From positions 50,629 through 114,628 of the forward strand of contig JAEOTP010000069.1 of assembly GCA_016839765.1 (NCBI GenBank): a stretch of DNA of 64,000 nucleotides. The letters are read 5' to 3'. This DNA is from Promethearchaeota archaeon (GTDB lineage Archaea > Asgardarchaeota > Lokiarchaeia > Sigyniarchaeales > SOKP01). Positions 49,666 through 61,580 of this stretch are shown here, one piece after another. Numbering within the stretch: position 1 is the stretch's first letter; the number at the start of each line of letters is the position of its first letter. Below the pieces are notes generated by a model. That model was not told the DNA's origin. It did not search any database and saw only the letters and a list, made by a program, of their open reading frames with translations. The position numbers and the translations under genes were made by a program.

Positions 49666-50328
49666 TTAATTTTTTAAAATCGTACCACAATGAGGGCATA
49701 TTTTAGTCCCAGCTTTTACTCTTTCCCCACAGGCAAAACATTTACTTGAAATTGAATCTTTGGGCTTATTTCCTTCTCTTCGATGTTTGGAAACGCTTTT
49801 ATCTGTTTTATCTTCAGAAAGAATTCTTTTAACATAATCTCCATTATGAGGAGTTATTATTTCAAAATCTTCTGAAGGTTTAATTTCTTTAAATCCTTTT
49901 GGTAGGTTTTTGAATTTACTATCTTCAATCATATTAGGTTCTTTCTTAGGGAAATCAGATTCTTCCTCCCCCTCCTCTTCATTTGGGCTTACAATCCCAA
50001 ATTCAGGTGAATCGATTCCATTTTCAACACTATAATCTGAAGCTTCGCCTTCTTCTTGGAGATCAGTAAATTCTTCTAAAATTTCCATTTTTCTCTCTTT
50101 AGCTAATTTTAATTTTAAGCTTTTAATATGTTCAATAATTTGTTTTGTCTTTTCAATTAACATAGTCCTATATGAAAACTCTAAATTAGGTGTCTTTGAA
50201 GCTTTGATTACAATTTCTGAAATTTCAACCCACTCATCAATTGCTTCGTTAATCTTATTATTATTTTCAAATCCAGTTGCTTTCGCAACTCTATAACCAA
50301 GTTCTTTATTAAATTTACCGATATCCAT
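49666..50328 (-). CDS. MIT-like three-helix domain, acidic linker and C-terminal zinc ribbon
   Basis: A...E.......AI..W.........AK......R..L..K...I......LK pattern; CFAC...ICPHCG. Confidence 0.6.
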   Translation of the reverse strand: MDIGKFNKELGYRVAKATGFENNNKINEAIDEWVEISEIVIKASKTPNLEFSYRTMLIEKTKQIIEHIKSLKLKLAKERKMEILEEFTDLQEEGEASDYSVENGIDSPEFGIVSPNEEEGEEESDFPKKEPNMIEDSKFKNLPKGFKEIKPSEDFEIITPHNGDYVKRILSEDKTDKSVSKHRREGNKPKDSISSKCFACGERVKAGTKICPHCGTILKN

Positions 50329-50475
50329 GATAAAATCATATTAACTTTTTATAAATATTCAAATTTAACAAGTAAATCCAAGTATTTATAATTGTTAATA
50401 TTTAAAGTAAAGATTAAAATTATAGATTTTTATTAGTTTATTAAGAAAATCATTATGATTATTTTTATCTAGATA

Positions 50476-52368
50476 ATGTCGATACATCCCCTTTCTGAGA
50501 ATGAACTCGAAAACTTAAGAAAAGCCATAGAAGAAAATGGTTGGCAGATTCACGGATATATCCAGAATTATTTTAGATATAGTATCACAAAGGAAAAACT
50601 ATTAGTATTTACAATAAAATTTCCGGTCACTTTACCTGTAAGGATTAATATTCCATTTGAGGTAGTTAGTTTTCGAGTTTCTATAGCTTTTAAATTTTGG
50701 AATATAAATCAAAATATTAACAAGGCAATTTTTTATTTTATGAAAACTCTAAGAGATTTAGCCTTAAGAGTCTCAATAGAACATAATTTTCAAATTAAAG
50801 GAAAGGAAAATGATTTACTTGAGATGTTAAATCTTCTCATGCCGGAAATAATAAAAGATGAGAATGAGAAAACTTGGATAAACCGAATTCGAATTTCTTT
50901 AGCAAACAAAAGGGAAAAATTTAAAGAATTTGATTCTACTCGTCTTACAAACATAGTTAATAGAATAAAAAACATAGGATTAAATCCTACCTTCAATTTA
51001 CCCTGGGAATTAAGTAATGGGGTACCAAAACTTAGAGCTTCTGAAACTTTGTTTTTTTCAAATGATGAAAAATTTGATGAATTTTTTATTCTAGAGAAAG
51101 GTTTTTTTACATATTTTAAAGATTTGGAATATAATAAGTTTTATATTCGATCTTCTTTTGATTGCTACACCCCATATATTTTGAGTAATATTTTTGATGA
51201 CACAGGTTTTAAATTAGAGGAAATTATAGAAAATTGGATTAAATTTTCTAGAATGATTTTAAATTCCGTATTAAAGTTAATCTCCTCAGGAAATTTTCTT
51301 CAAAATGACTATATAAATTTTAAACCAGTAAGGGAATTAGATTCTAGGGGTTATGAATTAGATCAAAATAATTTTCCATTTTCTCCCCTTCATTATGAGA
51401 GCTCTATTTCAAAGGGAGAATTATATCCAATTCATAACGATCTTCTTAATTCTCCGCCTATAAATTTTGAAGTTATTGAATCTCTAAATACATATACAGA
51501 AGCAGAAGAATTAATAAAAAATTATCGATTTAATGAAGCAGCAGAATTATTAAACAATTCTTTAAAGATTTTTAATAAAAATCGGCAAAGGAAAATTATT
51601 GTTTCAATTCTACTTAAACTGGGAAAAATTGCTTCACTTTTAAATCAAAGTGATATTGCGCTCAACTATTTACAAAATGCTCTCGGTGTAGCTAAATCAG
51701 GAGAAGTACCTATAGAATATATTATTAAGATACATTATAAATTAGGGAAATCGTATTATAACAAACAAGATTTTGTTAATGCCATGAAACATTTCAATAT
51801 TATTATTAGTTTCTTAAAAAAAGAGGAACAACACTCAATAAATACAGATGATTTTTTGGGCATGGCTTTTCTTTATATAGGATTAATTAATCTAGAACAA
51901 AACCAACTAGCTCAGTCAAAAAATAATTTCAAACAAGCTTTTCAATTAGGTAATAGTTCTATCAAAGTTAAGCTGAATTATCATTTACTCCGAGCAAAAC
52001 AATATAAAACTACTGGTAAAGTATCTCAAGCGCAAAAATTATTAAGATCTGGGATAGAAGCTGTAGGACTAGATTTTAAAGATGAGAAATATGAATATTT
52101 ATTTTTTGATCTAGTTTTAGAATTAGCAGAATTTTATGTTCATCATCGTGTTGATTCACGAAAAGCACTGTTTTTATTAAAAAAAATTGAAAGTCGCCTA
52201 GCTCTCAACGTCAAAGAAATACCTGGAATTAAAAGAGCTATAAGATGGAATTTGTTAATGTGCGATTTTTATGACATTCTAGCCAGAGATAGTAATAACT
52301 CCACTCATTATTATAAACAAAGTCAGATTTTAATTAATCAACTTAGGAAAATTGGGGTACTAGATTAA
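50476..52368 (+). CDS. TPR-containing protein
   Basis: C-terminal half has TPR units (LG......DIAL.Y...AL; YKLG..YY......A...F). Confidence 0.7.
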   Translation: MSIHPLSENELENLRKAIEENGWQIHGYIQNYFRYSITKEKLLVFTIKFPVTLPVRINIPFEVVSFRVSIAFKFWNINQNINKAIFYFMKTLRDLALRVSIEHNFQIKGKENDLLEMLNLLMPEIIKDENEKTWINRIRISLANKREKFKEFDSTRLTNIVNRIKNIGLNPTFNLPWELSNGVPKLRASETLFFSNDEKFDEFFILEKGFFTYFKDLEYNKFYIRSSFDCYTPYILSNIFDDTGFKLEEIIENWIKFSRMILNSVLKLISSGNFLQNDYINFKPVRELDSRGYELDQNNFPFSPLHYESSISKGELYPIHNDLLNSPPINFEVIESLNTYTEAEELIKNYRFNEAAELLNNSLKIFNKNRQRKIIVSILLKLGKIASLLNQSDIALNYLQNALGVAKSGEVPIEYIIKIHYKLGKSYYNKQDFVNAMKHFNIIISFLKKEEQHSINTDDFLGMAFLYIGLINLEQNQLAQSKNNFKQAFQLGNSSIKVKLNYHLLRAKQYKTTGKVSQAQKLLRSGIEAVGLDFKDEKYEYLFFDLVLELAEFYVHHRVDSRKALFLLKKIESRLALNVKEIPGIKRAIRWNLLMCDFYDILARDSNNSTHYYKQSQILINQLRKIGVLD

Positions 52369-52382
52369 AATAATAAAAAAAG

Positions 52383-52589
52383 TTATTTGCGTGAAAAGGC
52401 AGCACGCTTAGCGCCAAGTGAATCAGTTTGACCACCATATTTACCCTCTTCAACCCTTTTGGCATATAAATTTCTGAAGCGGATTCTTGGAGGTTTTTTC
52501 TTTTTGGCATTAACTCCTGTCCGGTCTATTTTGGGAGTTTGTTGCTTTACTTTTCCAGCTTTTGTCAATGATCCGTGCGAACCAGGCAT
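52383..52589 (-). CDS. rps30e: 30S ribosomal protein S30e
   Basis: [17 protein letters not shown]. Confidence 0.95.
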
Positions 52590-52690
52590 ATTACATCAAC
52601 TCTATATTACAGTTATACAAATTTATTTATAGTATTAAAAAATAATCCAAACTCTTAAATTTTGTTATTATTCTAAATTAAAATCAATAT

Positions 52691-52711
52691 AAAAATTGGA
52701 CTCCAATTTTT
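52691..52711. promoter_or_regulatory. Perfect inverted repeat in a divergent promoter region (possible operator)
   Basis: AAAAATTGGA-C-TCCAATTTTT. Confidence 0.4.
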
Positions 52712-52780
52712 TTATAGTGTTTTAATTCAATCTTTTAAATATCAGTGAAATATTTAATTTATTATATTATATGAGTTAAA

Positions 52781-52951
52781 ATGACCGAAAAAGCACCTAA
52801 TAATACAAACTCTAAATCTAAAGATTTTATTGATCAAAAAATTCAGTATGGAGAATCACAAATTAGTTGTTTTGCTTGCGGGGAAAAAATTAAAGAGGGG
52901 ACTAAAATATGCCCTTATTGCAACACAAAACAAGAATCAATAACTTCTTAA
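52781..52951 (+). CDS. Small stand-alone zinc-ribbon protein (56 aa, not in the ORF track)
   Basis: MTEKAP...SCFACGEKIKEGTKICPYCNTK, nearly the same ribbon as the 49666-50328 C-terminus. Confidence 0.75.
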   Translation: MTEKAPNNTNSKSKDFIDQKIQYGESQISCFACGEKIKEGTKICPYCNTKQESITS

Positions 52952-53010
52952 TAGAAATGTTTTTTGGTAATCAAAACACTAAAAATCTATATTAATAATT
53001 TTTCCTTAAA

Positions 53011-53517
53011 ATGATTGAGATGAGTTACAGAAATTATAGTCGAAAAACAATTTCAATAATCTGTATTTTTATTTTTGCAATTATCGTAGCCATTTTTATA
53101 ATTGGAATCAATTTTTTTGATATCAGTCTAATTTTAACAACTACAATTCCTTTAATTATAATTTCAATAATTGTAATAATCGTCATTCGTTTTTCATGGG
53201 AATCCCAGAAATATTGTCCTCGATGCAATATACCAATTAGCGTTTATTCAGAATATTGCAGAAATTGTGGATTAAAGCTTATTATTATGTGCCCAGATTG
53301 TAATAAATACCTTCGAATCGGAACAAGCTTATGTGATAATTGTGGTCATAAGTTTGAATTTTTTGACGAGGTTAAAGAAAAACCTGAGTTTGAAATAGTA
53401 CAAAAAGGTTCCCCCGCACCTGAGCAGGCAAATTTCTGCCCCACTTGTGGTAGTAATCTAAAGAACACTGAAAACCTTAGATTCTGTGAATATTGCGGTT
53501 CAAGATTGAAAAAGTAA
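53011..53517 (+). CDS. Two-TM protein with double zinc ribbon plus terminal zinc ribbon
   Basis: CPRC..CRNC..CPDC..CDNC and CPTC..FCEYCG. Confidence 0.8.
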   Translation: MIEMSYRNYSRKTISIICIFIFAIIVAIFIIGINFFDISLILTTTIPLIIISIIVIIVIRFSWESQKYCPRCNIPISVYSEYCRNCGLKLIIMCPDCNKYLRIGTSLCDNCGHKFEFFDEVKEKPEFEIVQKGSPAPEQANFCPTCGSNLKNTENLRFCEYCGSRLKK

Positions 53518-53719
53518 GAAATCCGTTTTAAAATAGACAAAAAAAAGTAGTATGCTCAATTCTATTGAAATTAATACAATTATACTTATCATAGTAATAC
53601 AATTGCACCGATTCTTTGTACAAAATAGTTAAGAATTGAATAACCTCAAATTATATCATTAATTACGAAAAATATAAATTTAGTAATTCATCTAAATTAT
53701 ATATTTACACCCTCTTTAA

Positions 53720-53847
53720 GGGGACTTGGCGTAGCCCGGTAGCGCGACAGGCTCCAGATCCCGTTAGCAAAGCGCGCAGAAACCTGTAGATCGGGGGTTC
53801 AATAAGATGTTTGGATTCCAAATACGTTGAAAATCCCTCAGTCCCCA
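53720..53847 (+). tRNA. trnW: tRNA-Trp(CCA) with two introns (53758-53781 at 37/38; 53804-53833 at 59/60)
   Basis: Acceptor stem GGGGACT/AGTCCCC; D stem GCGT/GCGC; anticodon stem ACAGG/CCTGT with CT-CCA-G; T stem GGGGG/CCCTC; BHB-type junctions; T-tract downstream. Confidence 0.92.
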
Positions 53848-54000
53848 CTTTTTTTTACCCAAAAACCTCGAGGTGGAGTATTGATATTATGTCTATTAAA
53901 CCACTTAACAGTCTACTTGCTCATAAATTTATTACAATTATTCGGATCAAAATATTTGAAATTTTATTAGATAAAGAAGATTAGATTATTTTGATTTCAA

Positions 54001-54750
54001 ATGGTAAATATGCAACATGAACTATTACGAGAAGATTTAGATTTAGAGGAAGCTGAGGATCTACAAACAAAATACTATTCTATAATACAAAAACAAGAAA
54101 ATGCCCCATATAAATATCCCTCATTGAAAACTTTAAAAAGGGTTGTAGGTGTGGACATATCTTATTATGAATGGAAAGGTGAAGAGTTTGGTGTATCCTG
54201 TGCTGCTCTATGGGACATCTTCAACGAAAAGTTGGAATATTGTACACTTGTAAAGGATAAAATCAAATTTCCGTATCATGCGGGCTTTTTAGGGTTTAGA
54301 GAATGCAATTTACTTGCTCAAGCTATTAAAAAACTTCCAAAAAATTACGATCTTATTATGTGTGATGGCCATGGAATAATCCATCCAAGAAGATTTGGCG
54401 AAGCAGTTCAATTAGGATTTGCTCTGGATACACCCACAATTGGTATAGCGAAAAAATCGTATATAGGGTATTGCGAATGGAGCTTATTAAAAAGGAAGAG
54501 GGGAGATAAAAAACCTGTCTTAGCTTATGAGCCAAATCTAAGAAAAAAATCTAAACAAGAAATGTTAGGCTATGCTATATGTTTAAATGATAATATGAAA
54601 CCAGTCTTCATAAGTGTGGGATACAGAACTACATTAGATTTAGCAATAAAAATTGCATTAAAAACGACATTAAAGCATAGACAACCTGAACCACTTTATT
54701 TGGCTGATCATCTGTCAAAAGAAAAAGTAAAAGAAATTCTTTCTTCTTAA
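54001..54750 (+). CDS. nfi: Endonuclease V
   Basis: VGVDISY; FPY.AGFLGFRE; DGHGIIHPRRFG.A; IGIAK; PEPL..AD. Confidence 0.92.
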   Translation: MVNMQHELLREDLDLEEAEDLQTKYYSIIQKQENAPYKYPSLKTLKRVVGVDISYYEWKGEEFGVSCAALWDIFNEKLEYCTLVKDKIKFPYHAGFLGFRECNLLAQAIKKLPKNYDLIMCDGHGIIHPRRFGEAVQLGFALDTPTIGIAKKSYIGYCEWSLLKRKRGDKKPVLAYEPNLRKKSKQEMLGYAICLNDNMKPVFISVGYRTTLDLAIKIALKTTLKHRQPEPLYLADHLSKEKVKEILSS

Positions 54751-54785
54751 TATATTACGCAGATTCATATCTATGAATTATAATT

Positions 54786-54811
54786 TTTCGTGAAAGGCTT
54801 GTTTCACGAAA
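54786..54811. terminator. Hairpin between convergent genes
   Basis: TTTCGTGAAA-GGCTTG-TTTCACGAAA. Confidence 0.5.
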
Positions 54812-54855
54812 TTCTGTTATTAAGCTTTAATTGAAAATAATCAAAGACGATAATT

Positions 54856-56142
54856 TTACATATTATCTGGTTTAAATTCTAGAAGTGAAGATCCACAATA
54901 CATACAGTAATTATTCTTGATATCGTTTTCATTATGACAATATGGGCATATTAAGTATCCGTGTTTCGGTTTAGCACGAATCTCTGGCTTTTTAGGTTCT
55001 TTAAATTTATGGGGTTCATATTTTCTATTTCTACTTAAGATTACATATAAAATTAATAAAACTCCAAGAAATATTGATAAAGCTCCAACAGCAACACTTA
55101 TTATGATAATAAAACTATTATCAGGCGGTATATATGGTGGGGGTGCATTAATTGAAAAGTATTGAATTTCTGATGCATATATTGTTCCAAGTGAATCATT
55201 TCCAAACACTTGAATATTGTGAACACCATTTGTCGGTAAAGGAAGTGTAGTATTCCCCACTATCGTCTTAGTGGTTAATCCATCTAAGGAATACCCCATC
55301 CAATCTAATGGCGTTCTGTTTACAAAACTCAGCAATAAACCTTCATTGAGATTATCTCCAATATTATAATTAGGATCCCATGAATAACCTACTGCATCTA
55401 TATAGTTGAATACGTTATCAGACCACGTTCTCATATCAAATTTAGTAATTGAAGTTGTGGTTGTACTTCTAAATCCATACCCACTTCCACCATCTACGCT
55501 ATTTTCATCGATCCAAAGATGCCAATCATCAGCACAGTCGAATTGTATCCTCACGTGATACCATGTGTATCCATTATACGACCCTACTGTTGTTGGAGCA
55601 GCTCCATTATAAACAACAAGGTTGCCATCTTCCCAATAAATAACAATTGTATCTTGGGGATTTTGGTCATGTATTTGAATCATTAAATAATCTCCTGAAT
55701 TATGTGGATAGTCTAAATAAATATAACACTCAATTATTCCGGTAGTTTGACTTGAAAATGTGTTAGATACTATTGTAGCTCCTCCACCTCCTCCTGCGTC
55801 TTTTAATTCAACTACCTTGTTATGCCCATCCATTTCTTCAACTACCTGGACAAATCCGGTGTAAGACGTAAAGAAAGACCACTCCTCTGGTATAATCCAA
55901 ATTTCATCATTTTCAAATCCGTAAGTAGCAGGATAATATCCGCTCATTGGCTCTGTATATGTTTTACTTTCTGGAGTAATAATTGAAATTTCATTATCAC
56001 TTGTTTGAAATGAATTATCTCCTTTACAATTAAGTTCAAAATTCTTGTTGAAACTGATGTTATTATTAATAAAACTACAACTAAAGGTAAAAACTACAAC
56101 AAGAAAGAATATAATAATTATAATATTCTTTTTTCCATTCAT
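54856..56142 (-). CDS. Single-module cell-surface protein (Ig-like frame with lectin/LamG-like insert, TM, cytoplasmic zinc ribbon)
   Basis: Signal-like N-terminus; PMSGYYPATYGFEND...DAVGYSWDPNY module; TM; CPYC...YCMYCG. Confidence 0.8.
   Translation of the reverse strand: MNGKKNIIIIIFFLVVVFTFSCSFINNNISFNKNFELNCKGDNSFQTSDNEISIITPESKTYTEPMSGYYPATYGFENDEIWIIPEEWSFFTSYTGFVQVVEEMDGHNKVVELKDAGGGGGATIVSNTFSSQTTGIIECYIYLDYPHNSGDYLMIQIHDQNPQDTIVIYWEDGNLVVYNGAAPTTVGSYNGYTWYHVRIQFDCADDWHLWIDENSVDGGSGYGFRSTTTTSITKFDMRTWSDNVFNYIDAVGYSWDPNYNIGDNLNEGLLLSFVNRTPLDWMGYSLDGLTTKTIVGNTTLPLPTNGVHNIQVFGNDSLGTIYASEIQYFSINAPPPYIPPDNSFIIIISVAVGALSIFLGVLLILYVILSRNRKYEPHKFKEPKKPEIRAKPKHGYLICPYCHNENDIKNNYCMYCGSSLLEFKPDNM
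55330..55975. repeat. Direct repeat of 59883-60528 (offset 4553, no indels)
   Basis: Manual comparison of 55381-55860 with 59934-60413 gave about 36 mismatches in 480 nt (about 92% identity). Confidence 0.9.
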
Positions 56143-56258
56143 GTTATTTATGGTTTTGAATTTCTGTTTTGAACGATTGTCTTAATATAAAATGAATAGG
56201 TAAATATATAAAGATTTTTCTAAGAATGTGAATTATTCAAAATATAAAAGAAAAAAAA

Positions 56259-57227
56259 TTATGTTGTAGGTTGAGCCCTTGTTATTATTTGAAGTGTTAA
56301 AAATGTTAATACTTCATTAAAATTTGACCTATTTATTTTGGGCATTTTGAAATAATGGGCTCCAATTGATTCTGCTAAAGATTGTCCTTCTTTCCATGAT
56401 ACTAATTTTGATTCTCCTGTTTCAATTAGAATTCTTGGCATCTCAACGGTAATTTTTGACTTTTTCTTTAGTTTGAATTTTAAGTCTGTTGCTCCCTTCA
56501 ATTCAGAAAAATATAATTTAATCTTTTCAAAAGACGCTGGATTATTATTATCATATGCAAATATTGCCCCACAACTACCTTTATAATAATTAGGCCTGAT
56601 AGACCTAAACTTAATATCACCTGACATATTCCACAAGTGTAATTTGACTAAAGTATTTTCCAAGACATTTCTTTCTGTCAATAAAAATTCAACTCCAATA
56701 GTTTGAGGCGTATATAGTTGGGTTTTAAAAAGTGGTGTAATTAATTCGTTTTTAAAAGGCACATCGAAACCTAGTAATATTATTTTGAGGGTAAAATCGA
56801 ATTTAACTCCCCACTCTTCAAAATAGGTTAAAAATCTTTTATATCTCTGAATTTTTTTACGTAATTCATACAATTGACTTCTCGCTGTGCTTGAGAGTTT
56901 TAATCCTGTAGCCCGGCGAATAACAGCTTCAGCTTGTCCTTGGCTGATGGTTTTATCAAATCTTAGATATAAATCATAAGCAATTTTTGAGATAACCCAA
57001 TCTAAATTGAATTTATTTAATAGATGTTGAATGCCTTTCCTTAAATTTTTATTTATGTTAGGGAATTCATTTTCATTAATGGAAATATTACTATATATAT
57101 CGATCTTACCTTCTCTAAATAAATCTTCTATTGTGTAATTAATTTTTGAAAGAAAGTTCTCCAAATTTTCTAATTGAGACTCGTTTAATTGATCATTTTT
57201 ATTTTTACCAACTTGAGTCATTTTCAA
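56259..57227 (-). CDS. Degenerate Rab-like small GTPase with a ~140-aa N-terminal domain
   Basis: LKIILLG; TIGVEF; VKLHLWNMSG..KFRSIRPNYYKG..GAI..YD; SFE.I. The P-loop GK[ST] and NKxD are absent. Confidence 0.75.
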   Translation of the reverse strand: MKMTQVGKNKNDQLNESQLENLENFLSKINYTIEDLFREGKIDIYSNISINENEFPNINKNLRKGIQHLLNKFNLDWVISKIAYDLYLRFDKTISQGQAEAVIRRATGLKLSSTARSQLYELRKKIQRYKRFLTYFEEWGVKFDFTLKIILLGFDVPFKNELITPLFKTQLYTPQTIGVEFLLTERNVLENTLVKLHLWNMSGDIKFRSIRPNYYKGSCGAIFAYDNNNPASFEKIKLYFSELKGATDLKFKLKKKSKITVEMPRILIETGESKLVSWKEGQSLAESIGAHYFKMPKINRSNFNEVLTFLTLQIITRAQPTT

Positions 57228-57254
57228 TCACTTAAGATTATTTTATATATTTTT

Positions 57255-57337
57255 TGTCCACATTATTTTTATATGTCCAATTAAGATTACTATGTCCATG
57301 ATAAAGATGGACATTTTCCTATTTAAATCTTTGTCAA
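57255..57337. promoter_or_regulatory. Phased TGTCCA repeats plus palindrome upstream of the Rab-like gene
   Basis: TGTCCA at 57255, 57274 and 57293 (19-bp period); ATGTCCAT-N7-ATGGACAT at 57292-57314; TGTCAA at 57332. Confidence 0.6.
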
Positions 57338-57399
57338 AAAATTTAAAAAATTATAAATTTAAAGAAAAAAAAATTTGATTTTTGAATTAGAATATAATA

Positions 57400-57858
57400 T
57401 TATTTTAAGAGGAATTGAATCTTAGTTTGTAGTTTATTCGGTGGAGTTTTATCTGGGTCATTTAAATAGAATTCATAGGCAATTCCAGAGGGTTTGTACC
57501 CATTATCGTCAACCCATTTAGTAAGTGTGTTATAAGCTGGTTCTATTTCGTTATAAGGACCTGTATGGATACAACTAGCATATTTTCCAGCTGGAATCTC
57601 CCTTGGTTTAATATCACCCTTTTCAGGAAGTTTGGTAGCAACTGGAAATCCAATTTCTACCTCTAAATTCTGCATATCCATATTAAAATAGGCAGTATAA
57701 GGAGCTCCAACTGGATTTTCTCCTAATTCTCCCATATACTGCATAATTCTCATATATGCTTCTCCCAATGCTTGGGGTAAACTTTGAGCTGAAGCTATTT
57801 TACGGATAGATAAAGCATGCTGGACTTTTTTCTCTTCTACTTCACAATTATGCGACAT
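57400..57858 (-). CDS. GyrI-like small-molecule-binding protein
   Basis: EIGFPV; PAGKYA...HTGPY; YEFYLNDP; LQTKI. Confidence 0.88.
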   Translation of the reverse strand: MSHNCEVEEKKVQHALSIRKIASAQSLPQALGEAYMRIMQYMGELGENPVGAPYTAYFNMDMQNLEVEIGFPVATKLPEKGDIKPREIPAGKYASCIHTGPYNEIEPAYNTLTKWVDDNGYKPSGIAYEFYLNDPDKTPPNKLQTKIQFLLK

Positions 57859-57995
57859 AAAAATTTCGGCCTAAGTTTTTTCTTTAAAATATATATTAGT
57901 TGCTTCAGTTGGTTATTGAAGCTATAATTTTTTAATATAATTTCCAATTATAATTATAATACAGAATAAAATTAGTAATTTGATAATTAAATAAA

Positions 57996-60900
57996 TTATT
58001 CTTCTCTAGGTTTAAAATCTGCAAGTGAAGCTCCACAATATATACAGTAATTATCCTTGATATGGGTTTCACTATGGCAATATGGGCACTTTCTATACAT
58101 ATCTTTTACTTCAACAGGAGCTTTTAGCTTTTTAGGCTTTGGGGGTCGAGCATTCCTCTTTCTAACTAAAGTTATGATTAAAAAAAGTGCTCCTACTGCA
58201 ATAAATACGCCAATGGCAACACTGATGATGATAATGAGAGTATTATCAGGTGGAATATACGGTGGAGTACTTTTTTGAACAATTACATCCTCGTAATCCA
58301 TGTTTCCTGCTTTATCTCTCACGTAAAATCTAATTGTGATGGCCCCATCTGGCGCAGCATTCCATGCGGTTGAATCTATATACCCGGTGTACTGTGAAAT
58401 ATCATAATTGGTTAAACCACCATCGAGGGTATACCACATAGCATCGATATTAAGCTCATCAACAGAAATATTAAAACTTGGAGGTATAATTGTAAATTGA
58501 GCACCAAATGAAGGAGTATTAATAGTAATGACTGGATCAGTAATATCTTTGTTGATATTAATCTCAGCATAATTAAAACCTCCAAACGTATCATTTACAT
58601 AGAACCGAATTGTAATTGGCCCCTCACCTTGGCCATCCCATTCGGTCTGATTTATGGTCCCCGATGATCCTATGAAAGTAATATTCGTCCCGCCACCATC
58701 TAATGTATACCATGTAGTAATTTGATAGAAAGCTGTTATCGAAATACTAAAAGTTGGCGCAATATTACTGTAAAATTCATTATTTGAAGGTGTTATAATG
58801 TTAATGGATGGTGGGGGAACATTAATTGAAAAAAATCGAACTTCTGATTCATATATAGTTCCTAAAGAATCATTTCCGAACACCTGAATAGAATGAGAGC
58901 CATCACCCAAGAATGGAATTGTTAAATCTCCCAGTATCGTCTTATTGGTTAATCTATCTAAAGAATATCCCATCCAATCAAGTGTAGTTCTATTCATAAA
59001 ACTAAGTAACAATCCTTCAATAGAGTTATCTCTAATATTATAGTTTGGGTCCCACGAAAATCCAATAGCATCTATATAAAACAAACCTGTAGTTCCCCAA
59101 GCGGATCGAATTTCAAGACGATCTGCATCTAATGCATCAGTATGCGTGTAAGAATAATCATCTGCTTCTAAAATTCCATTAATATACACGTCCACAGTCT
59201 TCGTGGTTCCATTCCAACTAATACTGATGTGATACCACTGATCATCATAAAATGTTGGTCCAAAAGTCTGCCAACCACCTGGAGCACTATTGATATTAAA
59301 CCTGTTGTTATTATATTGGCTAACGTATGAATCGATGCCTAATACTGTTATGTATCTTGTTAAGCTAGTGTCGAGTAGTGAAATCCAAATTGGACAATTC
59401 CCGCTCTCTTTATATACCCATAACTCAATTATTCCGGAATTATGGTCGTCACTAAATAATTGATAAATTCCTGGATCATCGCCAGTGGAACCTGCGTTAT
59501 CGTTAACTTCTAACACTTTCTTATGACCGGCTTTCTCAGAAATTACTCTAACAGTACCAATACCAGGATCCCATCTTAACCACCCATTTGGCTCAACTCC
59601 ATTAATGTCATTCTCAAACCCATAAGTCGCAGGATAATAACCACTCATTGGTTCTGTGTATGTTTTATTTTCTGGAGTAATAATACTAATCATAGGGAGA
59701 TCAAGAGTAAAATGCCTTAGATTCGATGCATACATTGTTCCAAGTGAGTCATTTCCAAACACTTGAATATTGTGAGATCCATTTGCTGGTAAAGGAAGAG
59801 TAATATTTCCCAATATTGTCTTATTGGTTAGCCCATTTAAAGAATATCCTATCCAATCTAACCTCGGATAGTTATCAAAACTAAGCAATAAACCTTGATC
59901 GAGATTAGTTCCAATATTATAATTAGGATCCCATGAATAACCTACTGCATCTATATAGTTGAATACGTTATCAGACCATGTTCTCATATCAAATTTAGTA
60001 ATTGATGTTGTGGTTGCGCTTCTAAATCCGTACCCACTTCCACCATCTACGCTATTGTCATCAATCCAAAGATGCCAATCATCAGCACAATCGAATTGTA
60101 CCCTCACGTGATACCACGTATATGCATTATACGACCCTACTATTGTTGGAGTAGTTCCATCATAAACAATAAGATTACCATCTTCCCAATAAATAACAAT
60201 CGTGTCTTGTGGGTTTTGGTCATGTATTTGAATCATTAAATAATCTCCTGAATTATGTGGATAGTCTAAATAAATATAGCACTCGATTGTTCCAGTAGTT
60301 TGACTCGAAAATGTGTTAGATACTATTGTAGCCCCTCCACCTCCTCCTGCGTCTTTTAATCCAACTACCTTGTTATGTCCATCCATTTCCTCAACCACTT
60401 GAGCAAATCCGGTGTAAGACGTAAAGAAAGACCACTCCTCAGGTATAACACCATTTTCATCGTTTTCAAATCCGTAAGTAGCAGGATAATACCCACTCAT
60501 CGGTTCTGTATATATTTTATTTTCTGGAGTAAGGATTTCAATATAATTAGTAATATTAATCGTAAAGTATCTTAGATTCGATGCATACATTGTTCCAAGT
60601 GAATTATTTCCAAACACTTGAATATTGTGAGCTCCATTTGCAGGTAAAGGAAGTGTAGTATTCCCCGATATTGTCTTATTGGCTAGTCCATCTAAAGAAT
60701 ATCCCTTCCAATCTAACGTAGTGCTGTTATCAAAACTAAGCATTAATCCTTCTTGCATATTATCTCCGAGATTATAATTAGGATCCCAAGACACTCCTAC
60801 CGCATCTACCCAGATATTAGTGTTTAATACATCATTATACATAGTAATATATAAGCGATTCACAGTAGTTCCTGTTGCATGATTCGTAGCGCCAATTACG

Positions 60901-61580
60901 GAACCTGCTAACGTATTATTCGTATGATAGACATAAATGTCTGAAGTATCTGAAATCATGTTCCAATCTACCCTTAATCGATACCACTTATTAGCCTCTG
61001 CAGGACAGATCGACTGATATTTGCTTCCATCATAATACTTCCACTCGTTTGAAACTATCCGTACAGTTACTTTAGCATCTGCATTATCTTTAATTTCTGC
61101 AGCATAAATGTAAAATGGTACAGGATCAGCATCGTCAAAGTTAATCCAATATTCTACTGTTCCCGTAGCCAAAGCTGCAAATTCTAAAAGACCACAGCCT
61201 TGGTTATTTGGAGATGATTGGGATCGCATATGTAAAACTTTTTTATGCTGATCTTTTTCTTGTATAACTTCAACCACACCAGAACCTAAGGATGCATCTG
61301 TCCAACCCTGTGGTAAACTTCCGATCTCGTCATTTTCGAACCCATATGTCCCAGGATAATACCCACTCATCGGTTTTTTGTAAGTAGTATTTTCTGGAGT
61401 AATTATTGAAATTTCATTATCACTTGATCTCACGGAATTTTTCTCGTGATAATCTTGCTCTGGTGTTCTAGGAATTATTAAATTACATCCAAATAAAATT
61501 AAACCACTCAATGATATTAAAGAGAGCAGTAAAACTAGTCTACTTATAGGTATCTTATTTTTTAGTATAGTTTTCACCAC
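57996..61580 (-). CDS. Large cell-surface protein: three Ig/lectin-like modules, two plain Ig-like repeats, TM and cytoplasmic zinc ribbon
   Basis: Three ~286-aa modules with conserved flanks; two WYTLDGG repeats; many NxS/T sequons; CPYC...YCIYCG. Confidence 0.85.
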   Translation of the reverse strand: MVKTILKNKIPISRLVLLLSLISLSGLILFGCNLIIPRTPEQDYHEKNSVRSSDNEISIITPENTTYKKPMSGYYPGTYGFENDEIGSLPQGWTDASLGSGVVEVIQEKDQHKKVLHMRSQSSPNNQGCGLLEFAALATGTVEYWINFDDADPVPFYIYAAEIKDNADAKVTVRIVSNEWKYYDGSKYQSICPAEANKWYRLRVDWNMISDTSDIYVYHTNNTLAGSVIGATNHATGTTVNRLYITMYNDVLNTNIWVDAVGVSWDPNYNLGDNMQEGLMLSFDNSTTLDWKGYSLDGLANKTISGNTTLPLPANGAHNIQVFGNNSLGTMYASNLRYFTINITNYIEILTPENKIYTEPMSGYYPATYGFENDENGVIPEEWSFFTSYTGFAQVVEEMDGHNKVVGLKDAGGGGGATIVSNTFSSQTTGTIECYIYLDYPHNSGDYLMIQIHDQNPQDTIVIYWEDGNLIVYDGTTPTIVGSYNAYTWYHVRVQFDCADDWHLWIDDNSVDGGSGYGFRSATTTSITKFDMRTWSDNVFNYIDAVGYSWDPNYNIGTNLDQGLLLSFDNYPRLDWIGYSLNGLTNKTILGNITLPLPANGSHNIQVFGNDSLGTMYASNLRHFTLDLPMISIITPENKTYTEPMSGYYPATYGFENDINGVEPNGWLRWDPGIGTVRVISEKAGHKKVLEVNDNAGSTGDDPGIYQLFSDDHNSGIIELWVYKESGNCPIWISLLDTSLTRYITVLGIDSYVSQYNNNRFNINSAPGGWQTFGPTFYDDQWYHISISWNGTTKTVDVYINGILEADDYSYTHTDALDADRLEIRSAWGTTGLFYIDAIGFSWDPNYNIRDNSIEGLLLSFMNRTTLDWMGYSLDRLTNKTILGDLTIPFLGDGSHSIQVFGNDSLGTIYESEVRFFSINVPPPSINIITPSNNEFYSNIAPTFSISITAFYQITTWYTLDGGGTNITFIGSSGTINQTEWDGQGEGPITIRFYVNDTFGGFNYAEININKDITDPVITINTPSFGAQFTIIPPSFNISVDELNIDAMWYTLDGGLTNYDISQYTGYIDSTAWNAAPDGAITIRFYVRDKAGNMDYEDVIVQKSTPPYIPPDNTLIIIISVAIGVFIAVGALFLIITLVRKRNARPPKPKKLKAPVEVKDMYRKCPYCHSETHIKDNYCIYCGASLADFKPREE

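Follow-up and report, generated by a model that had tools for sequence, protein, structure and literature searches.

Two genes in the window analysed here, a 64,000-nt stretch of DNA from a Promethearchaeota archaeon (assembly GCA_016839765.1, contig JAEOTP010000069.1, positions 50,629-114,628 forward), are co-oriented on the minus strand and encode a long protein of 1194 aa (P0001, window positions 57996-61580) and a short one of 428 aa (P0002, 54856-56142), which we infer to be membrane-anchored type-I glycoproteins displayed on the cell surface. Both are built from a module in which a predicted jelly roll, hereafter the head, appears to be nested within an immunoglobulin (Ig)-like domain, hereafter the frame, and the scenario that best accounts for the available data, to which we give a probability of about 0.78, is that heads are exchanged whole by recombination at the conserved joints between head and frame. 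In this Ig[jelly-roll] system, the frames and the plain Ig-like repeats that follow them in the long protein would form a constant stalk, with frames evolving as slot-specific orthologues, and the jelly rolls would be variable heads replaced by ordinary homologous recombination or gene conversion with end points in the joints TPENKTY... and ...SWDPNYNIGDNLxEG. The source of diversity would be the substitution of one old head type for another, out of hundreds, and not point mutation, and unequal recombination between repeated frames and tails would add or remove modules, Ig repeats or whole genes at the locus. Head turnover at the strain level might be driven by frequency-dependent selection exerted by viruses or syntrophic partners.

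A predicted jelly roll within a probable Ig-like frame

An earlier note, made from the sequence alone, had claimed four copies of the module, and four are indeed present: M1 (aa 53-342, 60555-61424), M2 (aa 343-627, 59700-60554) and M3 (aa 628-921, 58818-59699) in the long gene, which by alignment and head clustering carry heads of types 0, 14 and 15, respectively, and S (aa 48-333, 55144-56001) in the short gene. Each is 285-294 aa long, and a repeat search on the window recovers the four-copy flank families independently of that reading. In all four (~288 aa), constant flanks of 32 and 85 aa enclose a variable centre of 168-177 aa, which is the layout that had been described.

An AlphaFold2 (AF2) model of P0002 made from 50 sequences, with a predicted local distance difference test (pLDDT) score of 81, comprises a helix (residues 2-27), a strand (52-56), a strand block (89-253), six further strands (272-331), a transmembrane (TM) helix (343-371) and a ribbon (396-420). 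In this model, residues 72-257 (pLDDT ~80-97) are a two-sheet ConA/LamG-type jelly roll, for which the best structural match is the carbohydrate-binding module (CBM) of the BT_1020 sialidase (5mqs_A; VIA-align Z 22.1, root-mean-square deviation (rmsd) 2.3 over 173 aa, against Z 16.9 for the runner-up). Together with a best Foldseek E of 1.6e-9, this supports, on predicted structure, the lectin-like fold that had been proposed for the centre. Because residues 72-257 make up the jelly roll, the motifs YPATYGFEND and DAxGYSWD are its first and last strands. Among homologues, PF13385 or PF22585 matches are precomputed for many, and a syntenic orthologue (L042) scores 32.0 bits against PF13385 (Laminin_G_3), above the cut-off of 27.6. 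The only invariant residues of the centre, G135, E138, W194 with H196, and D249-A250, occupy core positions of the fold, and the loops of the jelly roll are hypervariable.

An idea of the nature of the frame came from the two plain repeats of the long protein (aa 922-1105, 58266-58817), which are 79-88% identical to those of its orthologues and are modelled at pLDDT 95 as seven-strand sandwiches matching fibronectin type III (FnIII)/Ig-like structures (Z 12.4 with the Fn3-like tandem of CbhA; Z 10-11 and rmsd ~2.0 with single domains). The resemblance of the joined flanks to these repeats, already noticed by eye, was recovered when a profile of the joined flanks (450 modules) was aligned to one of the plain repeats (n = 337), with an hhalign E of 1.8e-5 and a probability of 78% over strands B-G; the I.IiTPE motif of the N-flank falls on strand A in the global profile alignment only. 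Strand order and spacing agree between the P0002 model and that of the plain repeats. An Ig-like frame is thus supported by homology to repeats that fold as Ig/FnIII sandwiches and, since the flanks match the protein's own plain repeats, it is apparently the A-B loop of an Ig-like domain that accommodates the jelly roll, so that module S would consist of Ig strand A (52-56), the jelly roll (72-257) and Ig strands B-G (272-331), with strand A probably completing the sandwich. Five N-x-S/T sequons of the frame are each conserved in 58-81% of modules and, on average, a module has 4.2 sequons in its flanks versus 1.5 in its centre, a pattern that fits an N-glycosylated extracellular stalk.

Head exchange within the window

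One trace of exchange is a tract of ~615 nt shared by S (55357-55971) and M2 (59910-60524), which covers a linker, the whole jelly roll and a second linker (TPENK...SWDPNYNIG). On the left the tract stops within TPE(S/N)K and on the right after SWDPNYNIG, where 60 nt match exactly. Over this tract, 567 of 615 nt are identical (92.2%), and over the centre alone 499 of 540 (92.4%), in agreement with the value of about 92% reported earlier, as against 163 of 210 (77.6%) in the frame after the tract (Fisher p = 1.9e-8, codon alignment). The frames of S and M2 have a non-synonymous divergence dN of 0.19 and their heads one of 0.04, and the conservation gradient seen across the family is therefore inverted in this pair. 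The 48 mismatches in the tract are 40 transitions and 8 transversions, with 32 at third codon positions. A different footprint is seen between M1 and M2, whose C-flanks have a synonymous divergence dS of only 0.33 and use the same codon for 85% of identical residues, against a background of 52-60%, while their heads are saturated; therefore, either the frames have been homogenised or the heads have been imported. At the joints of the window modules, exact matches 24-60 nt long provide enough homology for recombination, and the heads of S and M2 are probably two copies from one exchange event in the host genome.

The short gene had also been proposed to be a finer mosaic, and here the outcome is mixed. 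Its start does match M1, the first 20 nt of S (SDNEISI) being identical in both. In its C-flank, however, the supposed segments from M1 (GNTTLPLP) and M3 (NRT..LDWMGYSLD and FSIN.PPP) form a patchy, non-significant pattern from which no donor can be named, the sites shared with a single module in columns 691-873 numbering seven for M3, four for M2 and three for M1. To judge from the sequence and the flank tree, an older, separate lineage accounts better for the S frame.

Head exchange among relatives

A wider view of the family is offered by 450 complete modules taken from 231 proteins. Their flanks have a median pairwise identity of 62% and are almost constant in length (N-flank of 32 aa in 70% of modules, range 28-33; C-flank of 85 aa in 85%, range 84-88), whereas the centres, of 149-202 aa, have a median identity of 21.5% and fall into 253 head types when clustered at 55% identity. 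The separate trees for flanks and inserts by which the earlier note proposed to examine exchange, obtained here by maximum likelihood (ML) for 31 modules, are incongruent: in approximately unbiased (AU) tests, the flank tree is rejected by the centre data (p = 1e-47), as is the centre tree by the flank data (p = 4e-34). In the flank ML tree, modules group by slot across proteins.

What this means for individual proteins is best seen in the order of their heads, which is 0-14-15 in the host, 0-28-15 in P0123, 0-14-16 in P0124, 0-28-? in P0144 and 50-0-30 in the syntenic gene of genome G022 (P0125). Close orthologues of the long protein thus keep slot-specific frames and differ in their heads. 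P0123 and P0144 have the unrelated head type 28 in the M2 frame, and P0124 and the gene found at loci L038 and L035 have other heads in the M3 frame. Between the M2 modules of P0001 and P0123, the N-flank is 91% identical, the C-flank 82% and the head 24%, and head 28 recurs in P0004 at 81-83% identity. Likewise, head type 0, that of M1, is found again as the second head of the G022 gene and in genes of genome G019 with a single module, P0121 among them. Orthologous slots with flanks 82-91% identical hold heads of 20-26% identity, and the same head types are found elsewhere at 81-91%; conversely, heads 94-100% identical are found in frames 63-73% identical. Among pairs with heads at least 80% identical, 57 of 112 have flanks more than 10 points lower, with 61 proteins involved, and among pairs with flanks at least 82% identical (n = 112), the heads are unrelated in 38%.

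The boundaries of exchange are also reproducible. Tandem modules of P0142, P0231, P0008 and P0162 and the S/M2 pair provide five independent cases of a near-identical tract that starts at TPENKTY and ends at SWDPNYNIGDNLxEG. Since these joints bound the tract each time, the exchanged unit is the inserted domain plus its two connectors. Selection within head types is purifying (dN/dS 0.15-0.24; 0.15 for type 14 and about 0.2 for type 0 between genomes), and head diversity therefore arises by replacement. Taken together, the AU tests, the slot-wise frames and the contrast between tract and frame strongly support the exchange of heads as whole domains via recombination at two conserved joints, and the cassette swapping in conserved flanks that had been postulated is backed much more strongly by the comparison with relatives than it could be by the window by itself.

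Alternative explanations

A simpler history would be duplication of whole modules followed by fast divergence of the centres between conserved flanks, with no exchange at all. Tandem modules and a paralogous short gene do exist, module number varies from 1 to 8 per protein and the short gene bears an in-frame deletion of two Ig repeats (see below), all of which speaks for such a history. It is nevertheless highly improbable, because a common tree for flanks and centres is rejected by the AU tests, because slots that are orthologous by their flanks hold heads which recur in other frames, because near-identical heads sit in much more divergent frames and because the heads are under purifying selection rather than diverging fast. 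At the other extreme, conserved flanks around a variable segment are the very layout of programmed diversification, be it gene conversion from silent cassettes of the pilE/pilS or vlsE type or a diversity-generating retroelement. A search of the host genome gave only five matches, all within the P0001 and P0002 genes, so that there are no further copies and no silent, unexpressed cassettes in that genome, the only matches being in two genes of expressed type. Nor does the genome (96 contigs, 96% complete, 3.45% contamination) contain a PF00078 match, which would indicate a reverse transcriptase. No adenine bias is seen among the 48 S-M2 mismatches, and synonymous-site identity at the joints between loci (0.49-0.60) is not above that elsewhere (0.37-0.62), leaving no signal at the DNA level. 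With no cassettes, reverse transcriptase, adenine bias or joint signal, general homologous recombination suffices, and a programmed mechanism has next to no probability left. Head variation is population-level domain replacement, not programmed variation. The diversifying repertoire suggested by the earlier note consequently has to be given up within the genome, with its four heads and neither silent cassettes nor reverse transcriptase, but stands between strains and species.

That the mosaic is an artefact, with paralogues or strains joined at the conserved joints into chimeric contigs, deserves consideration because all of the data come from metagenome-assembled genomes (MAGs) or metagenomes, the host genome is fragmented and slightly contaminated, the joints contain exact matches of the length given above, and database searches place P0001 and P0002 on a single contig each. 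This is very unlikely all the same. The S head is not a collapsed repeat, because 48 mostly synonymous transitions separate it from M2; two template switches, both at homologous joints, would be required to make a chimera; the frame and tail of S have independent orthologues (P0004, with an 81% identical tail, G013 and L038/L035); head type 14 was assembled independently in P0124 and P0127; and the same discordance is found in 61 proteins from many projects. A last alternative concerns what the heads do rather than how they move. They could be displayed enzymes, since GH16-like glycanases and PL7-like lyases share the jelly roll and account for much of the neighbourhood at Z 13-17, where many of the similar structures are of glycoside hydrolases or lyases. 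However, the best structural match is a non-catalytic CBM well ahead of the next one, the Pfam matches are Laminin_G_3 and Sialidase-like CBM, the invariant residues belong to the fold core and no catalytic motif is common to the 253 head types, which makes catalysis unlikely. The modelled heads may instead bind glycans or the surfaces of partners or viruses.

Several points weigh against the nested-domain and exchange scenario itself. The pairing of strand A with the C-flank in one sandwich would follow from a profile alignment of 78% probability and from strand order. Scores against the relevant families fall narrowly short of their cut-offs, for P0001 against PF22585 (25.8 bits, cut-off 27), for the zinc ribbon of P0002 against PF13240 (24.1 versus 25) and for the plain repeats against Big_13 (PF19077; 23.6 versus 27). 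Furthermore, all relatives are MAG or metagenome assemblies, in which 100%-identical tandem heads could reflect repeat assembly, and the break points of the closest orthologues, P0123 and P0124, are defined at the protein level only.

Relation to known systems

The heads share their fold with the LamG-like and Sialidase-like CBMs (PF13385, PF22585; BT_1020, PDB 5MQS/5MQR) and are of the carbohydrate-binding-module type, but, unlike the BT_1020-type CBM, they are nested in a predicted Ig-like domain, have family-specific end strands and are not attached to a catalytic domain. Replacement of a variable surface segment by recombination at conserved flanks is known from Neisseria pilE/pilS, Borrelia vlsE and Mycoplasma MgPa. 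The Asgard modules resemble these mosaic antigens in flank-guided exchange and in the incongruent histories of flanks and inserts, but they differ in that a silent archive and signs of programmed switching are both absent, an entire folded domain of ~200 aa is exchanged and turnover takes place between strains and paralogues. A further parallel is offered by the receptor-binding domains of phage tail fibres and the C-terminal toxin tips of Rhs and contact-dependent inhibition (CDI) systems, which are swapped at a conserved joint at the population level and likewise show purifying selection within each tip type; the Asgard unit, however, is internal (in a loop), is present in 1-8 copies per protein and has a single fold. 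For the coupling of head and stalk, an analogy may be drawn with the integrin beta subunit, a type-I membrane protein whose cytoplasmic tail is short, in which the ligand-binding betaI (von Willebrand factor A, vWA) domain is inserted in the Ig-like hybrid domain, although the inserted domains are unrelated (vWA versus jelly roll). Finally, many proteins with these modules end, like Loki-CTERM proteins (NF033507), in PGIPGY, a TM helix and KKR, whereas P0001 and P0002 end in a TM helix and a zinc ribbon. The principle has precedents in the mosaic adhesins of bacteria and the receptor-binding proteins of phages; new are the predicted nesting of a jelly roll in an Ig-like domain, an exchange that is precise to the domain and its occurrence in Asgard archaea. 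Searches of the published literature yielded no description of this module family.

Cultured Asgard archaea lack an ordered S-layer and have many complex surface proteins, proposed to mediate cell contacts in syntrophy and eukaryogenesis (PMC9834061). The Ig[jelly-roll] family provides concrete candidates for partner or virus recognition in these organisms, and a clean natural case of domain-precise cassette exchange in a nested domain that could serve as a display scaffold. A far more ambitious scenario, in which the heads would form a combinatorial recognition code on the Asgard surface that is read by partners, kin or viruses, with matched heads on the two proteins and occupancy passed inward via the zinc-ribbon tail, as a prokaryotic forerunner of eukaryote-style adhesion receptors whose specificity can be swapped, is a long shot.

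The locus as a hot spot

The two genes are separated by a GyrI-like and a Ras-family gene, and the pair is bordered by genes for an EamA transporter and endonuclease V (EndoV). In relatives, these neighbours are well conserved (aa identity of 89-92% for EamA, 80-81% for GyrI, 84-85% for the Ras-like protein and 83-98% for EndoV), but the surface genes between them differ in kind, so that the locus is a hot spot, the fastest-changing part of a neighbourhood that is 84-98% conserved. In G022, the order is long gene (50-0-30), Ras-like gene and short-like gene. In G019, a single-module gene (head 89) replaces the long gene, and a 26-aa stretch between the Ras-like and EndoV genes (L046, G019:C136, 272-349), 69% identical to the zinc ribbon of the short gene, appears to be left over from a short gene that was deleted. 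In G013, EamA directly adjoins the Ras-like gene.

L038 (JAEOSD010000164.1) and L035 are 93.8% identical in nucleotides to window positions 50225-55140 and lose collinearity with the window at 55140, where the module of the short gene meets its tail. In their gene, an M3-type frame holding a different head is combined with two Ig repeats (80% nt identity to the long gene) and an S-type tail. By comparison with this closest orthologue, the short gene lacks exactly two Ig repeats between PPP and PPY, which is a plain in-frame deletion, and therefore duplication and deletion act beside cassette replacement. P0004, another relative with an S-type tail (81% aa identity), has two modules with heads 28-79. 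As a side observation, the head of the short gene is of the same type as that of M2 (type 14), and type 28, which P0123 and P0144 have in slot 2, is the first head of P0004; if P0004 and P0123/P0144 belong to one organism, long and short proteins may keep matched heads.

The Ras/Rab-like protein (56259-57227, minus strand) has an N-terminal extension of ~145 aa and no P-loop (LLGFDVPFKNE at that position). It is 84-85% identical in the three relatives G022, G013 and G019 (found at L042:4158-5132, L044:3490-4461 and L043:6133-6870), and its gene stays at the locus in G013 even without a long gene. A functional link with the surface proteins was considered and set aside, as the genes are linked only in these three closest relatives, copies of 34-41% identity lying on other contigs or 65 kb away from module genes.

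Leaders, tails and membrane anchors

The leader of P0001 (aa 1-52, 61425-61580) consists of an N-terminal hydrophobic signal segment, assigned from the sequence and by analogy with helix 2-27 of the P0002 model, followed by a linker. In both leaders the hydrophobic stretch ends with a cysteine (LFGC and TFSC; 61480-61520 and 56065-56085), a lipobox-like feature that suggests a possible lipid modification of the mature N-terminus.

The tail of P0001 (57996-58265) comprises a PPYIPPDN stalk, a TM helix, a basic cytoplasmic segment and a putative C-terminal CPYC...CIYCG zinc ribbon, and that of P0002 (54856-55143), delimited by the AF2 model and synteny, PPPYIPPDN, TM helix 343-371 and zinc ribbon 396-420. 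The match between the two tails claimed earlier is real: the final 128 nt of the genes are 76% identical and the tails 52% identical in aa. Both have a terminal CxxC-(8-16)-CxxC motif, for which the PF13240 score is 14.8 bits in P0001, further from the cut-off than in P0002. This zinc ribbon is of a short generic type present on many proteins of the host genome. Its assignment as the actin-linked, gelsolin-type zinc domain (~45 aa, CPxCG...(25)...YxKKYxCxxCG) was rejected, as a hidden Markov model (HMM) made from two window copies of that domain misses both tails; it finds 11 open reading frames (ORFs) in the host genome, on contigs C51, C77, C18, C64, C58, C59, C50 and C17. Among 237 relatives, a TM helix plus zinc ribbon ends 63 proteins, and a Loki-CTERM-type end (PGIPGY, TM helix and KKR, by pattern) about 77, one relative (P0025) scoring 29.2 bits against the NCBIfam model NF033507. 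The signalling through the zinc ribbon put forward in the earlier note is thus conjectural, and a Loki-CTERM-type anchor takes the place of the ribbon in many relatives. The Loki-CTERM sorting domain is absent from P0001 and P0002, and an NCBIfam search assigns neither to a named family.

Distribution of the family

Sequence searches yield about 300-360 relatives each and, where the source is named, these are nearly all Asgard MAGs, labelled Promethearchaeota/Lokiarchaeota, Hod-, Hermod-, Thor- or Odinarchaeota. In a library of 1.84 billion representatives, the number of matching clusters rises from 413 at E<=1e-30 to 903 at E<=1e-10; scans of metagenome and genome contigs gave only truncated relatives, and no match scoring 0.9 or more was found in the ESM Atlas. 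The family is thus large, but it is patchy, being present in 30 of the 61 related genomes searched, with at most 13 matches each. Three genomes of the same order are single contigs (G044, G050 and G055); two of these closed genomes have no match at E<=1e-5, and the remaining one encodes just one distant module (30% identity), within an ORF of 2248 aa. Five IMG/VR contigs also contain the jelly-roll unit (HMM columns 20-223, with the family's own first and last strands) with no Ig frame around it, in solo genes or arrays, for example as five tandem genes of 255-265 aa in L049 (4953-8858) and as seven copies inside a 2460-aa ORF in L047 (4524-11903).

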